Source: a virus
Lineage: Duplodnaviria; Heunggongvirae; Uroviricota; Caudoviricetes
Direction: 5' to 3' (one strand)
IMG/VR virus record: IMGVR_UViG_2778261066_000006
Length of the DNA stretch: 5,039 bases
Below, one piece after another: positions 1 through 5,039 of this stretch. The translations under genes and the position numbers were made by a program. How positions within the stretch are numbered: position 1 is the stretch's first letter; every line of letters begins with the position of its first letter. The notes under the pieces were generated by a model that saw nothing but the letters and a program-made list of their open reading frames with translations, was not told where the DNA came from and ran no database searches.

Positions 1-279
1 ATGCTTCCATCGGAAACGATGATCTGGCAGCCTGAGTTCACAGATAAAACACTCTCCAGGAAACCCGGGGCGGTTCAGTTCGCCCCAAAAAAGCGAATCT
101 TTATCCGTTTTGGCAAAGGCTTTGACGAGTACCTCATCATTACCTTCTTCCCAAATTTTTTCCGCCGTTTTTTCGTCGTACCCGGCAATTTCAAAAATGG
201 CCTCGGCTATTTCTGGCGACGTATTACGCAGAGATGCCCATTCACCTACGTGATGAGCTTTCGCTTCTTGAGTTGGCAT
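1..279 (-). CDS. yccJ: YccJ-family small protein; frame stays open to the window edge
   Basis: Minus-strand translation from ATG (revcomp of 277-279) gives [67 protein letters not shown]..., matching E. coli YccJ as I recall it. It lies immediately downstream of wrbA in the same orientation, as in E. coli. No stop codon is reached before position 1, and the tail after WGE differs from the YccJ C-terminus I remember. Confidence 0.8.
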
Positions 280-299
280 GCGTATCCTCCTGTTGAAGA

Positions 300-866
300 T
301 TAGCCGTTAAGTTTGACTGCCAGACCAGCAACATATTCCCCCTGATAACGTGCGATCGACAGCTCTTCCTGGCTGGGCTGGCGTGAACCGTCACCGCCTG
401 CGATGGTGGTTGCGCCATATGGCGTTCCGCCGCGAACCTGCGAAACGTCAAATAACTCCTGGGCCGCGTAGCCAATAGGAACAATTATCATGCCGTGGTG
501 AGCAAGGGTCGTCCAGGTTGAAGTAATGGTCTGTTCCTGGCCGCCGCCGGTGCCGGTAGAGCTAAAAACGCTCGCCAGTTTGCCGTATAGCGCACCGGAA
601 GCCCACAGGCCGCCAGTCTGATCCAGGAAGGTACGCATCTGCCCTGACATATTGCCAAAGCGGGTCGGAGTACCAAAAATAATGGCATCGTAATCTGCCA
701 GTTCTTGCGGAGTTGCAACGGGGGCAGTTTGCGTTTTACCGCCTGCTTTTTCGAATAATTGCGGCTGCATGGTTTCCGGTACACGCTTAACGACAACTTC
801 CGCGCCATCAACTTTGCTTGCACCTTCAGCGACTGCGCGCGCCATCGTTTCAATATGTCCGTACAT
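300..866 (-). pseudogene. wrbA: wrbA NAD(P)H:quinone oxidoreductase (flavodoxin-like), 5'-truncated by insertion of foreign DNA; residues ~11-198 retained
   Basis: Minus-strand translation reproduces WrbA from [33 protein letters not shown]... to ...[13 protein letters not shown], with TAA stop at 300-302. The first ~10 codons (MAKVLVLYYS in E. coli WrbA as I recall it), the RBS and the promoter are absent. Sequence above 866 is AT-rich and unrelated, with an in-frame TGA at 867-869. Confidence 0.9.
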
Positions 867-2793
867 TCATTGTGGCATTGTTAAACAATTCACCCATTGA
901 ACTAAAAATTCTACTCCATCCTTCGTTAATCATATTCGGTTTATTAGGGTCACCAGAATACACAGGATTAAAGTCACTACCCACACCTACCCCAGATGGA
1001 TGCATATTAGCGTTTTTGACTACTTCCTGATTCATAAAATCCAGTGCTTTCTTCAATGCATATAAACCAAGAGTGACGCCTCTGATTTGTGGAATCATTG
1101 AAGCTAATGCTAACGCTGTTTCATAACCGTCATCAGCATAACCAATTGCAAGAGCACTACCTACACCACCAGCTACACCTTTCAGTTTTCCACCACCTTT
1201 ACCAGTAGCTACCTGACCAGCCACCTGATTAGCTCTTGTACCTAACGTTGTGATTGCTCTTGTCAGGTTCATAACCCCTGTAGTAGCACTGAATAGTGTC
1301 TTTGCAGATAACGCTATAGCAAGACCTTTGACAAAATTGATAAAACCATCACCGACTTCATCAAGTAGTTTTCGTTTAGTGTCATCAAGGCTGTAATAGG
1401 TCTTCTTAATCTGTAGAATCCAGCCTTCAAGGTGATTGTTAAAGATACGGATGTCATCTACACCAGCTTTAAGCATGTCGATAAGTCCACCGATAGCATC
1501 ACCAGCGATAGAAGAACTCATCCCCATTTCACTAAGCAGGTTACTCAGGCTGGATAAGAAGCCGTTTAACTCATCCTGTGAACCTGAGAAGATTTTCACC
1601 ATCGTATCATCCCAGTTGTTAGCCAGTTTCCCTAAAGCTGTCTGAGTGCTCTTAGCGACTTCAGCCCAGCCACCTGCTTTATCAATCATCAAGCCCATCT
1701 GTTTAGCGACTTTAGGGAGAGTATCAGCGGAAAGAATCTTCCCGTTTTTCATGGCTGCATCAAGCTCTGTAGCAGTCATACCCAATGCTTCAGCGAATAG
1801 TTTAAATGCACCTGCCATACGGTCACCTAACTGACCACGAAGTTCTTCAGCCTGAATCTTGCCCTTGCTCGCCATCTGCTCAAAAGCTTTCAAAATGCCG
1901 TTTAGCTCGTCGTTAGAAAGCCCCATTAAGCGACTCATAGCCGTTGCATTACCAAATAGCTCCTGTGTCTGTTCCTGTGACATAGAACCCTGAGCACCTG
2001 CTGCAAACTTAGCGTAGCTTGATAGCCCTTCAGAGATATTAAGACCTGTCTTGTCTGCTAAATTTCGAATAAATACCTCAGCTTCAGAGGCTTTATCACC
2101 AAGTACAAACTTAGCGGCTCTCTGTGCGGAATCTCGTTTAAGACCTGCATTCATAATGGCCTTGTAAGCGTTAAGAGCACCCATCACAGAGTAAAATGCA
2201 CCAGATAATTTAATCGCATTGCTTGCAAGATTATTAAATGCGTCGCTTGTATTGTTAATGCTGGCGGTCTTTGTCTGTGACCTGAGTTTATTCAACGTTT
2301 CACGAAGAGATTGATTTAATTTTGCAAGTTCAGCGTTAAACTTTTCACTTCCAATATTACCAGCCTTACCGCTTAAGCTGTAATACTGTGCTTTAAACAT
2401 TTTAGCCATCAGCGGATTAATATCACCAAGCTTAGACATATTCACGCTATGCGCTGCTGTGATTGCTCTGTTTCCGCTAATTCGTGGCTGTCTTGGTTGT
2501 TTTGGAGGATTAACAGTGTCATTAAATCTGGTGGTAAACTGGAAAGCTTTAGTATTTCTTGCTCTCTGTTCAATCTTGTCAAAGGTCTTATTAAACTTCC
2601 TTTCAAGCTGCCCTAAAGAAGCCGTTAAATTACTATCAAGCTGCTTTGTATTAATCCTGAAACCTTTGTTAAGGTTCTTTTCAATTCTTTGTGCTGACTG
2701 CAAAGCTGCCTTTTCAACTCTTTGCAAGCCCTTAATAACGTCCTCATTGAAGCTTAGCTCAACGATAAAACTATCAACTGTGAATTTGCTCAT
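850..2793 (-). CDS. phage tail tape measure-like protein (647 aa)
   Basis: Long ORF with SD AAGAGGTGA (revcomp of 2801-2809) 7 nt upstream of the ATG. It is alpha-helical, Ala/Lys/Gly-rich and of low complexity. The internal segment ...[57 protein letters not shown]... resembles the conserved tape-measure N-terminal-type domain. Gly-rich hydrophobic stretches near the C-terminus ([48 protein letters not shown]) are typical of tape measure proteins. Domain assignment is by recognition, not by search. Confidence 0.6.
853..870. other. Host/foreign junction inside wrbA (putative att core/boundary); exact crossover not determinable from one junction
   Basis: wrbA identity ends at ~866/867, and composition changes abruptly from GC-rich to AT-rich across this point. 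Confidence 0.6.
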
Positions 2794-2823
2794 TCATATT
2801 TCACCTCTTAAGTGTTCATATAC

Positions 2824-2875
2824 AAAAAAGGGAGAAACTACCGATATCACTCGATAATCTCTCCCGTTGATTTTT
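2824..2875 (-). terminator. Weak hairpin between the 69-aa ORF and the tape-measure-like ORF (GGGAGA/TCTCCC stem, 24-nt loop, T-runs on both sides); possible attenuator or partial terminator
   Basis: 6-bp stem 2830-2835/2860-2865, flanked by AAAAAA (2824-2829) and TTGATTTTT (2867-2875). The large loop makes it a weak candidate. Confidence 0.25.
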
Positions 2876-2892
2876 ACCCAACCAATTCTTTT

Positions 2893-3102
2893 TTAATGTC
2901 TGACAAGATAATGTAATTCCGTTTCACCTATGATTTGAGCATCAGAAGGAATACGGTCAATACACCACTTTGGAATCTTGCGTGTTTTTGGTTTGTGTGA
3001 GGTGATAACTTGACGTTTGTTTTTAATTCTTAAGGCTGGATTGGCTTGTAACTTTAAGTTTTCACAAACAGACCGAATAGTCTCTAGACGCTCTTCAAAC
3101 AT
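2893..3102 (-). CDS. hypothetical protein (69 aa), basic
   Basis: ORF with strong SD AAGAGGTGA (revcomp of 3106-3114) 3 nt upstream of the ATG, starting 23 nt after the stop of the upstream 236-aa ORF (operon-like). No recognisable domain. Confidence 0.55.
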   Translation of the reverse strand: MFEERLETIRSVCENLKLQANPALRIKNKRQVITSHKPKTRKIPKWCIDRIPSDAQIIGETELHYLVRH

Positions 3103-3125
3103 TAATCACCTCTTTTAATTCATAG

Positions 3126-3836
3126 TTAAAGTGTCTTGCTATACTTCTGAGAAATCTTAGTAAGCTGCTCAATATCAGCCTGCATAGCAATCTTCTTCTG
3201 CGTTTCATAGTCACTGATTAGTTGCTTCATAGCTCTAAGCTGGTTAGCAAGCTCTTGCTTAAATCTGTTTAATTTTTTGCTATGACGCTCAAGTAGATTC
3301 TTTTCAGCTAACTGACAAATCTCTTCATCTGTTTTATCAGACAGTAAAATATATGAACCTGTACCGCGTGAAGCTGGTCTAACATCAATTAAACGGAATC
3401 CTTCAGGGATGTTTTGAAGAACTTTTGAGATATTCTCTCTTGCTGTACCAAAACCATCATTATCTTCAACTGAGTAATATACGAATGGATTTTGTCTAAT
3501 TTCCACTTCAATATCAAAATCAGTTGGCTTTTCAGTCTCTTCAAAGTTCTTCACATTGTCGTAAGCGTCATCTAATCTAAGGCGCTGTGCTTTTAACTGT
3601 GGGTAATATTCACGCTCAAGATTAAATAGTGCTTCAGTTTTACCAATATCGGGCATCTCTTGAGGCTCAGGCGTCACAAAGATGATTTCCTTTGGTGACA
3701 TCTTTAGCGATTGCTCAAGCTTAATTCTTTCATCGTGTTCTTTACGCTGAATAGTGATAGCTGGATGTTCAGTCTGTGGCGACCAGTCACCGAAGCTATC
3801 AATCTTTTTACCGTTAATGTAAATATCGTTTGTCAT
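3126..3836 (-). CDS. hypothetical protein (236 aa), acidic/charged with predicted coiled-coil C-terminus
   Basis: ORF with SD AAGAGGA (revcomp of ~3844-3850) ~7 nt upstream of the ATG. Same AT-rich composition as its neighbours. First gene of an apparent 236aa-69aa-(tape measure) transcription unit. No recognisable domain. Confidence 0.7.
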   Translation of the reverse strand: MTNDIYINGKKIDSFGDWSPQTEHPAITIQRKEHDERIKLEQSLKMSPKEIIFVTPEPQEMPDIGKTEALFNLEREYYPQLKAQRLRLDDAYDNVKNFEETEKPTDFDIEVEIRQNPFVYYSVEDNDGFGTARENISKVLQNIPEGFRLIDVRPASRGTGSYILLSDKTDEEICQLAEKNLLERHSKKLNRFKQELANQLRAMKQLISDYETQKKIAMQADIEQLTKISQKYSKTL

Positions 3837-3865
3837 TGTTTTTTCCTCTTCTAAGCTAAAGTATT

Positions 3866-3951
3866 TCAGTTTTTAAAAAGCACACCTGACAGCCTACAAA
3901 CTTAGAAGAGACTTAAAAGGCGGTTTGCCAAGTATGCTTTTTAAAAACTGA
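3866..3951. repeat. Perfect 17-bp inverted repeat pair (TCAGTTTTTAAAAAGCA at 3866-3882; TGCTTTTTAAAAACTGA at 3935-3951) flanking a 52-bp spacer; candidate operator or regulatory element upstream of the 236-aa gene
   Basis: Directly read: the two arms are exact reverse complements. Each arm also contains the palindrome TTTTTAAAAA. The pair sits 30-115 bp upstream of the 236-aa ORF start. Confidence 0.5.
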
Positions 3952-3986
3952 ATAGCCCTAGATAATTTCTTATAAAGGGCTATTCA
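3949..3986 (-). terminator. Candidate intrinsic terminator (11-bp stem TGAATAGCCCT/AGGGCTATTCA, 16-nt loop) followed on the minus strand by G+UUUUU
   Basis: Perfect 11-bp stem read directly. On the minus-strand transcript the stem is followed immediately by GTTTTTAAAAAGC. Could terminate transcripts from the 107-aa gene, though it lies ~330 nt downstream of that stop. Confidence 0.4.
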
Positions 3987-4315
3987 TAAGGTGAAGAAAT
4001 TAAAAAAAACATCTGAAGGATTCAATAACGAATGAACAAGAGTACTTTTCGAGATGACCTCTCAGACTAACCTGAAAGGCCATGTAGCGAAAAGCATTGC
4101 ACCTTTCCAACTCAGAATATAGTTATCATCGATGTAGAGACGATTAATAGTTTAATTCAGGAAGAATTGCTCTCCCCTATATACAATCTTCTCATGCTTA
4201 AGGTTATTTGTCAACAGCTTTTTAACAGATTGGTAACATCAATTCTTATTTACTGTGTTACCCACCCAGCAACCAACAAATAGCCCTAGCAACGTCCAAG
4301 CAATTATTAAACCCA

Positions 4316-4639
4316 TTAGTGAACCCTCACAGAATCCGTAACCAGAATATTGTCAGCGTGCAAAATTACTATAGCCGCCTTGAGATATTGTTCAGGGCTA
4401 ACACTGTATTTGTTCGTTTCTTCGATAATAATACGCTTCATGTTTGAGTCTGTAATTGGTAGCATCATTCGAGGCTCGTTAAACTCCACCGACTGAATAA
4501 AGTCAGAGATGCTTTCCGCATTATCAGCCATTAACTCTAACAACTTATCAAAGTCAATGATAATACCTGCATCAGTGAAAGCCTGAATCATCATGGTGGT
4601 GTCGCTATCAACGAAAATCTGTAATTCGTAATTATTCAT
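4316..4639 (-). CDS. hypothetical small acidic protein (107 aa; ~18 Asp/Glu vs ~7 Lys/Arg)
   Basis: ORF with SD AGGAGA (revcomp of 4649-4654) 9 nt upstream of the ATG, TAA stop at 4316-4318. No recognisable domain. Confidence 0.65.
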   Translation of the reverse strand: MNNYELQIFVDSDTTMMIQAFTDAGIIIDFDKLLELMADNAESISDFIQSVEFNEPRMMLPITDSNMKRIIIEETNKYSVSPEQYLKAAIVILHADNILVTDSVRVH

Positions 4640-4910
4640 TTCTTAAAATCTCCTTTTTACCAGACCTCCTCAATCGCTCTGTAACGAGCTAAACAGTCTT
4701 TTTCAGGGGTAGCCTGTACAGTGGTATTACCCACCCTAAAATAAGGTAGTTTTTTGCGTTAGAATGCGATTGAGAGCGTCTGAGAAGCTGTTTTTCTAAT
4801 TTCTCTTAAAGTCTCGGACTTGCATAAGATTTTTTGGTCTGGTATCGGCTCTGTTACCATTTCGATGGATAATTTGCTTGTTGGATTGATAGCCATGATA
4901 AAGGAACCAG

Positions 4911-4933
4911 GGTGATGCTGCCAACTTACTGAT
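4911..4933 (+). repeat. IS1 left terminal inverted repeat (IRL)
   Basis: GGTGATGCTGCCAACTTACTGAT is the canonical IS1 terminal repeat. Confidence 0.85.
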
Positions 4934-4965
4934 TTAGTGTATGATGGTGTTTTTGAGGTGCTCCA

Positions 4966-5039
4966 GTGGCTTCTGTTTCTATTAGCTGTCCCTCCTGTTC
5001 AGCTACTGACGGGGTGGTGCGTAACGGCAAAAGCACCGC
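4966..5039 (+). CDS. insA: IS1 InsA (N-terminal 24 codons; partial at window edge), GTG start
   Basis: Translation from GTG at 4966 gives (M)[24 protein letters not shown], the InsA N-terminus including its CxxC motif. Confidence 0.85.
   Translation, partial: [24 protein letters not shown]

Follow-up and report, generated by a model that had tools for sequence, protein, structure and literature searches.

The wrbA gene is a known integration site of Stx phages, lambdoid phages of about 60 kb that carry tyrosine integrases, and deletion combined with insertion sequence (IS) decay, leaving chimeric open reading frames (ORFs), is typical of the decaying prophages found at this locus. Here, we analyze a 5,039-nt stretch of DNA, IMG/VR record IMGVR_UViG_2778261066_000006 (in its whole length “the window,” to which all positions refer unless another record is named), in which a 647-aa ORF ends inside a wrbA fragment. 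This ORF is very probably a truncated tape measure protein (TMP) gene from an integrative element of ~11.2 kb that was fused to wrbA by a deletion of ~2.93 kb and is now, most likely, a decaying pseudogene. While locus and mode of decay are those of decaying prophages at wrbA, the element differs from Stx phages in its size of 11 kb, its serine recombinase, and its GTGCTTT core at wrbA codons 6 to 8.

Several other described systems share features with the element. The PLEs of Vibrio integrate by means of a large serine recombinase. They are described as small chromosomal islands that parasitize the lytic phage ICP1 and excise on infection (PMC7145576, PMC9410903). The element resembles them in having a large serine integrase, a replication-initiator-like gene, a circular form, and apparent sequence exchange with virulent phages, but it occurs in another host genus, and the likeness is one of lifestyle, sequence homology to PLE genes not having come to light, although no test aimed at it was made. 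We know of no PLE with TMP or Dit homologues. P4-like elements, phage-inducible chromosomal islands (PICIs), and capsid-forming PICIs (cf-PICIs) use tyrosine integrases and carry hallmark genes, namely, sid, psu, delta, and alpha in P4, alpA and pri-rep in PICIs, and capsid and packaging genes in cf-PICIs. The element falls into the same size class (~11 kb), integrates site specifically, and likewise lacks a full virion gene set; however, Pfam and PHROGs searches of its proteins found none of these hallmark genes, its integrase is a serine recombinase, and, to our knowledge, no P4-like element, PICI, or cf-PICI carries a tape measure gene. Finally, Tab (PMC10884400) and Tai (PMC11364771) are proteins, encoded on the chromosome or on mobile elements, that block tail assembly of an invading phage. 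The resemblance to the element is one of concept only, in that a TMP-Dit cassette mimicking the phage’s own proteins might likewise block tail assembly; the element gave no PADLOC match, and the Tai report mentions neither Dit nor serine recombinases and refers to tape measures in its reference list only. We found no published functional description of the element in the literature, where one genomics paper on Shiga toxin-producing E. coli gives, for a strain with the element, no more than a count of unnamed “integrative elements.”

The window is identical to the entire contig PTRT01000178.1 (GCA_002965745.1) and to parts of three further assemblies, and it was assembled as a separate 5-kb contig because both of its ends are IS copies. 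We compared it with strain I2 (L001), strain J31 (L002), strain BL12 (L007), whose wrbA is unoccupied, the assemblies L003, L004, and L005, which have the identical junction, the element-sized Logan contigs L017 and L020, and the metagenome contig L022. The junction region comprises the following features.

300..866, minus strand: wrbA without codons 1 to 10, its own start, and its promoter, with the frame running from native Met11 (ORF list, Pfam, and comparison with BL12 and I2)
850..2793, minus strand: the chimeric 647-aa ORF (ORF list, Pfam, PHROGs, BLAST, and protein alignment)
865..866: the deletion junction, a 2-bp microhomology (AT) common to the wrbA and TMP sides (BLAST and breakpoint sequences)

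On the minus strand, the last codons of the ORF are AAT (867-865, N), GTA (864-862, V), CGG (861-859, R), ACA (858-856, T), TAT (855-853, Y), and TGA (852-850, stop). Codons 1 to 643 (865-2793) are the 5' part of a TMP gene of ~726 codons, and codons 644 to 647 together with the stop (850-864) come from wrbA, in a frame other than its own: the retained wrbA frame begins with the ATG at 866-864, which is native Met11, and differs from the TMP frame, whose stop codon overlaps wrbA codons Ile15 and Glu16. The original prediction, that the ORF ends in N-V-R-T-Y-stop over wrbA in another frame and that its TGA lies within wrbA codons, is thus correct on both counts, the codon reading and the ORF list being in agreement. 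Its tape measure assignment, for which a search with hidden Markov models had been suggested, was confirmed as well: in Pfam, TMP_3 (PF20155) matches ORF residues 234 to 398 (6.7e-21; 75.3 bits, with a cutoff of 41), in PHROGs the ORF matches phrog_4036, a tail length tape measure protein (6.6e-92), and a full-length relative also matches TIGR02675 (1.8e-15). The wrbA ORF matches the Pfam family FMN_red from profile position 17 only and Flavodoxin_1 from position 6 only, indicating that the WrbA N terminus is missing.

The TMP side has lost its end, too. In a protein alignment with the 726-aa homologues, the last shared residue is N643, after which the window protein reads VRTY-stop and the homologues go on with IARFNHPEL...LLSSSFPEDD. 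In a database of 5.8 billion proteins, the best 120 homologues are all 722 to 729 aa long, and the other members of the protein’s own 90% cluster are listed with 723 to 726 aa, with one exception of 602 aa. The motif at the tip, [LI][LI]SS[SA][FY]PE[DE], recurs in the TMP of phage HMD-P10 and in divergent variants of the element (…LISSAYPEE), in which TMP identity is down to 44 to 50%. Moreover, the 726-aa TMP aligns over 100% of its length with the 742- to 746-aa TMPs of virulent Felix O1-like myoviruses (Ounavirinae) at 30 to 36% identity, with the similarity concentrated in the first ~47 residues, the central domain, and the extreme C terminus (LLSSSFPEDD versus LLSSSYPEEE). The C terminus of a TMP is located at the tail tip or baseplate hub, and the window copy has lost this conserved and presumably functional end. 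Free-phage homologues that stop where the ORF stops, which would have spoken for a normal full-length gene, did not appear; the phage TMPs run on to the conserved tip. The same alignments do away with the notion that the protein is oddly short for a siphovirus tape measure and its central domain anomalously placed: the full-length form aligns end to end with 742-aa Felix O1-like TMPs, these TMPs of contractile-tailed phages share the layout, and the source is not a siphovirus but the remnant of an ~11-kb element without capsid, terminase, sheath, and tube genes.

The breakpoints can be read directly from a comparison with strain I2. By BLAST, window positions 75 to 866 correspond to L001 5998-6789 and positions 865 to 4647 to L001 9717-13481, and L001 6790-9716 (2,927 bp) is absent from the window. 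Homology switches at 865/866, where both BLAST and the reading of the breakpoints leave the dinucleotide AT as the sole bases common to the two sides. In L001, the absent interval holds the serine recombinase gene (6880-8523), the Dit-like gene (8520-9308), and the 3' end of the TMP gene (9465-9716; 252 bp), and the att core and wrbA codons 1 to 10 are missing from the window as well. In agreement with this, relatives of the foreign part of the window in complete E. coli genomes have ~3 kb extra between wrbA and the TMP gene. No large serine recombinase was found in the window or within ±10 kb of the junction in L003 to L005. The window protein therefore is not a full tape measure copy, as it does not have the complete C terminus with the tip motif, and it does not belong to a full tail module, the element being devoid of tube, sheath, chaperone, and hub genes and the Dit-like partner being deleted in the window.

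Intact copies place the attachment site elsewhere. Comparison of the unoccupied wrbA in L007 with the occupied one in L001 yielded a 7-bp core, AAAGCAC, which reads GTGCTTT on the wrbA coding strand and spans codons 6 to 8; the element in I2 occupies L001 6805-17957 (11,153 bp). Both joints are held by L020, one being ATGGCTAAAGTTCTGGTGCTTT followed by TACATAGC... and the other ...AAGAATACTAGTGCTTT followed by ATTATTCCATGTACGG. The element brings a substitute wrbA start, MSVKARILVLYYS..., that replaces MAKVLVLYYS... and gives a 201-aa WrbA (L001 6790-6828; last 70 bases of L020), so that integration normally regenerates a full-length wrbA frame. In the window, the wrbA sequence ends 8 bp host-ward of the core, attR lies outside the window, and attL itself is deleted. 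The junction is therefore a deletion scar and not “the att junction,” as it had originally been framed.

The predicted attP, in turn, was found in three metagenome contigs. One of them, L022 (ERZ506742 NODE-633), is 11,233 bp long at 14.7x coverage, has a 55-bp terminal direct overlap, and carries attP at 5443-5478, joining L001 6798 to L001 17964; its recombinase is 100% identical to that of I2. As such an overlap is the usual signature of circular assembly, this indicates that L022 represents the excised circular form of the element. Its TMP gene is complete (688 aa, stop at 2793) and ends ~2.65 kb from attP, with the Dit-like and recombinase genes in between. Inspection of an excised form, which had been proposed as a check, thus shows that the core is not at the end of the TMP gene. 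A second attP is present in L023 (OOBX01000469.1), a 23,009-bp contig of ~2x unit length, 6 kb of which were examined and which could be a dimer or concatemer. L017 and L020 were rejected as circles, since neither shows a terminal overlap and the two wrbA joints of L020 mark it as an integrated copy. A search of IMG/VR with attP gave no match, hence no evidence of packaging into virions. Beside attP and opposite the large integrase lies a second, small serine recombinase (182 to 183 aa; Resolvase and HTH_7) at L017 191-739, L020 571-1122, and L022 5981-6529, whose role might be that of resolvase, invertase, or directionality factor.

From these comparisons we infer in which order the events took place, how the deletion arose, and that both truncated products have lost their function. 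An element of ~11.2 kb would have inserted into the 5' end of wrbA, and a single illegitimate deletion of ~2.93 kb, mediated by the 2-bp microhomology AT, would then, in an ancestor of one Escherichia albertii lineage, have taken the last 83 TMP codons, the Dit-like gene, the serine recombinase, the attL core, and the first 10 wrbA codons. The shortened TMP frame would then have run four codons into wrbA, out of frame, to a chance TGA, and the remnant would later have gained IS1, an IS21-type IS, and other ISs, with an IS3-family element adjoining in yccJ. Because integrase and att site are gone, the remnant cannot excise, and without integrase, attL, and Dit partner it is immobile and decaying. 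In this sequence of events, the 647-aa ORF is most likely a pseudogene, and the wrbA fragment, with its first 10 codons gone and its Pfam matches beginning only at profile positions 6 and 17, is probably inactive. The second of two alternatives in the original prediction, that a later deletion truncated a longer gene for which host sequence supplies a fortuitous stop, is correct, as the homologues run 83 residues further. Some observations weigh against such a scenario. Intact copies were recovered from E. coli relatives, 91 to 95% identical in DNA, but not from E. albertii itself, and the ancestral state is deduced from the former. Furthermore, the 643 retained codons contain no internal stop or frameshift and are 93 to 96% identical in protein sequence to intact copies, and the ORF may still be expressed or retain residual function. 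A microhomology of 2 bp, finally, is weak evidence for any given deletion mechanism.

Other accounts of the junction have to be set against this one. According to the first alternative in the original prediction, the gene would be full length and normal, the att core would sit at its 3' end, and integration would always swap its last codons for host sequence. Gene-integrating elements do often bring replacement gene ends, as members of this family do with the 5' end of wrbA; for the TMP gene, however, only the local appearance of the junction points in this direction, whereas GTGCTTT lies 2.65 to 2.9 kb past the TMP stop, beyond the Dit-like and recombinase genes, in integrated copies and in the excised circle alike, the homologues continue for 83 residues to a conserved tip, and the core is wholly absent from the window. 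The intact copies and the circle refute this account. A site-specific truncation, either at integration or by the recombinase acting on a pseudo-att site within the TMP gene, is distinctly improbable. Serine recombinases are able to act on pseudo-sites, and one endpoint of the deletion is only 8 bp from the att core, but this endpoint lies outside the 7-bp core, AT constitutes the sole common bases, the hybrid core expected from a recombinase event is not present, and neither breakpoint resembles the attP or attB arms by eye, no formal search having been made. Deletion by the recombinase was rejected on the same grounds, with no core and no visible half-site similarity at the breakpoints. An IS-mediated adjacent deletion was rejected because there is no IS at 865-866, the nearest IS ends lying at 74 and 4911.

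That the window is a 5,039-bp contig flanked by IS copies might raise the suspicion of an assembly or scaffolding artifact; the probability of this is negligible, given that the junction is located midcontig, far from the IS ends, and recurs in four independent assemblies, including sequences of 4.67 and 4.69 Mb. Alternatively, the chimeric TMP could be a selected functional variant, for example, a dominant-negative poison of tail assembly serving as an immobile defense gene. Its 643 codons are open and identical in four assemblies, the parts most similar to phage TMPs, namely, the N-terminal 47 residues and the central domain, are retained, and tail-assembly interference is an established defense strategy (PMC10884400, PMC11364771). 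Yet identity among four close assemblies is uninformative on selection, the conserved C-terminal tip and the Dit partner are lost, the surrounding element is full of IS insertions, PADLOC gave no match, and a conserved terminator upstream of the gene points to low basal expression, making this account improbable.

The fusion of the TMP gene to wrbA by deletion is tied to E. albertii by several observations. Four independent NCBI assemblies share the junction and an identical 647-aa protein, and in two of these the scaffold concerned exceeds 4.6 Mb. In NCBI, entries for exactly this 647-aa protein and for exactly this 188-aa WrbA fragment name E. albertii, with the type strain NBRC 107761 (= DSM 17582) among them. 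Consistent with this species, the host flank is only ~91.5% identical to each of 5,416 E. coli genomes. None of the 5,426 complete genomes of E. coli has the junction, and an exact search of the GTDB species-representative genomes returned no match. The two ends of the window document the subsequent IS activity.

1..74: end of an IS3-family IS; E. coli homology begins only at 75-78, and the contig breaks here
75..279, minus strand: yccJ with its 3' end cut by the IS and its last ~7 codons gone (window 75-866 equals L001 5998-6789; yccJ is annotated at 5975-6202 in L001)
4796..4910, minus strand: 3' part (~38 codons) of an HNH endonuclease gene split by IS1 (HNH_3 match; the window up to 4910 equals L002 up to 12144, within the HNH gene at 12030-12317)
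4911..5039: end of IS1, the second contig break (a DDE_Tnp_IS1 gene lies directly beyond it in L003 and L004; homology to intact elements ends at 4910)

In L003, an IS3-family IS of ~1.3 kb (HTH_Tnp_1 and rve ORFs; genes 12759-13972) adjoins the yccJ remnant, and the IS at window positions 1 to 74 presumably resembles IS629. This IS is absent from L005, where yccJ is intact (75 aa; 4632-4859), whereas yccJ is cut in L003, L004, and the window strain. Since L005 combines the junction with an intact yccJ, the deletion is older than the IS3-family insertion, and the presence of the IS in only part of the assemblies points to further IS-driven divergence within the deletion lineage. At the other end, the terminal repeat GGTGATGCTGCC... 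is one we take to be that of IS1. Its insertion into the HNH gene (L003 7009-7883) is accompanied by a 9-bp target duplication (L002 12136-12144 on both sides), and the other half of the HNH gene lies beyond the ISs in L003. Past IS1, L003 and L004 still contain the rest of the element, broken up by IS1, an IS21-type IS, and another IS. As a side observation, tyrosine integrases of 436 aa represent the 90% cluster to which the 188-aa WrbA fragment belongs, presumably since ORFs of Stx-type integrases at wrbA extend into its sequence; this looks like a database oddity.

To place the remnant in context, we examined the parent element. In I2, the gene order is wrbA (201 aa), large serine recombinase (547 aa), “phage baseplate protein” (262 aa), TMP (726 aa), the 69-aa, 236-aa, and 107-aa genes, further small genes, a Rep-like gene, a Dam methylase gene, and ymdF. 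The recombinase of intact relatives has Resolvase, Recombinase, and Zn-ribbon domains (PF00239, PF07508, and PF13408) and matches phrog_95 (2.6e-78), and the 262-aa “phage baseplate protein” is a Pfam Dit_like protein (3.3e-19). Intact relatives of 11.15 to 11.2 kb contain only integrase, Dit, TMP, small unknown, HNH, Rep-like, Dam, and small resolvase genes; no capsid, portal, terminase, sheath, or tube gene and no full tail set was found in them with Pfam and PHROGs, and they are not complete tailed prophages. The element is common: its TMP gene was matched in 404 of 5,426 complete E. coli genomes (7.4%), always on the chromosome, and its 236-aa gene also occurs in NCBI records of Shigella, Salmonella, and Citrobacter, with 3087 homologue clusters. 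In J31, the same element sits in yecE. The part of its backbone retained in the window is as follows.

2830..2865, minus strand: terminator-like hairpin and T-run directly upstream of the TMP ribosome-binding site, kept in 10 of 10 variants compared
2893..3102, minus strand: 69-aa element backbone gene (p69), function unknown (ORF list and variant comparison)
3126..3836, minus strand: 236-aa element gene (p236), function unknown; labeled “transposase” in RefSeq, with no model backing
3865..3986: two inverted repeats (27-nt and 17-nt arms) in the 480-bp noncoding gap upstream of the 236-aa gene (from the sequence)
4316..4639, minus strand: 107-aa element backbone gene (p107), function unknown (ORF list and variant comparison)

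The 236-aa protein has no match in Pfam, PHROGs, PADLOC, or NCBIfam and none to phages by tblastn; its AlphaFold2 model consists mainly of long helices (pLDDT of 70), and Foldseek against BFVD returned only coiled-coil noise (E >= 0.02). The “transposase” label carried by hundreds of RefSeq records of this protein therefore looks unsupported. A screen against PADLOC-DB 2.0 gave no defense match, the only hit being a nonsignificant one (0.0043) of the 107-aa protein to a restriction-enzyme model. The inverted repeats, with 27-nt arms at 3865-3891/3926-3952 and 17-nt arms at 3949-3965/3970-3986, may have a regulatory role or form a terminator; scanning the window and L022 against Rfam yielded nothing but noise, which stayed below threshold at the inverted repeats. 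The hairpin lies ~25 nt upstream of the TMP ribosome-binding site and shows some compensatory changes among the ten variants. A helper-controlled switch was considered for it and set aside: the hairpin is conserved, but in phage HMD-P10, too, the chaperone and TMP genes are preceded by an analogous terminator, so that the hairpin is not specific evidence. In some variants, 1.9 to 2.8 kb without any ORF of more than ~70 aa replaces the I2-type Dam and Rep-like genes (L022 6530-8413; L002 13365-16172). This ORF-poor region holds a 48-nt direct repeat (L022 7672 and 7767) with no Rfam match, and it could be an origin or RNA coding.

Variants of the element keep the order p107, p236, p69, TMP, Dit, recombinase and are mosaic otherwise. 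HNH and p71 are up to 97 to 100% identical and p69 up to 94% identical where TMP is 44 to 47%, Dit 57%, and recombinase 34% identical, and p69 ranges from 63 to 94% identity across variants whose TMPs are only 44 to 47% identical. Mosaicism extends into the TMP itself, with the N-terminal ~160 residues being about 78 to 94% identical between I2 and the variant L012 and the C-terminal part 13 to 26%. For Dit residues 1 to 185, we compared L001 8520-9308, L002 6804-7592, L012 4902-5672, and L022 2967-3740 with the phages L008 (6980-7777) and L024 (2980-3777), with the following results.

J31-type element versus Felixounavirus HMD-P10: 94% identity
L012/L022-type element versus Suspvirus SUSP2: 83% identity
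The two element types versus each other: 69 to 76% identity

In DNA, ~500 bp of the Dit-like gene are 81 to 84% identical to Felixounavirus genomes, and the C-terminal ~75 residues of Dit and most of the TMP are element specific. Since the N-terminal domain of Dit is closer to phage genera than to that of sister elements, this suggests repeated genetic exchange between the element and virulent Ounavirinae.

The likeness to these phages, such as HMD-P10 and SUSP2, also covers the order of TMP followed by Dit-like gene, the end-to-end alignment of the TMPs (726 versus 742 to 746 aa), with the first ~47 residues, the TMP_3 domain, and the C-terminal tip conserved, and an N-terminal Dit domain that is 84 to 94% identical. 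In contrast, the TMPs are 30 to 36% identical overall and the C-terminal ~75 residues of Dit 31 to 47%, and the element is an integrating one of 11 kb, without capsid, portal, terminase, sheath, tube, or other baseplate genes; the window copy, moreover, lacks the last 83 TMP residues and the Dit gene. The reading we prefer is that the element may interact with infecting Ounavirinae through tail initiation. The family might be a satellite of lytic coliphages that supplies its own tail-initiation proteins, or a mobile defense that interferes with tail assembly, and would be an enterobacterial counterpart of the PLEs that acts by way of tail components, a proposal that we regard as a real possibility rather than as the probable one. 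Indirect support for a satellite comes from the circular form in a metagenome and from the phage-like N-terminal domain of Dit.

The truncated ORF itself is an ordinary decay product, with little at stake. Its recognition as such corrects the annotation of E. albertii, where a single deletion gave rise, as truncated products, both to the “tape measure protein” of RefSeq (WP_024164773.1) and to the 188-aa “NAD(P)H:quinone oxidoreductase,” and the junction is usable as a lineage marker for this species. The main interest lies in the parent element, which is common, excises, and has as its only structural genes a TMP and a Dit-like gene tied to virulent Felix O1-like phages. These phages are used in biocontrol of Salmonella and E. 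coli and in typing. If the element indeed hijacks or blocks their tail assembly, it would affect the host range available to phage therapy and would represent a new satellite or defense strategy.

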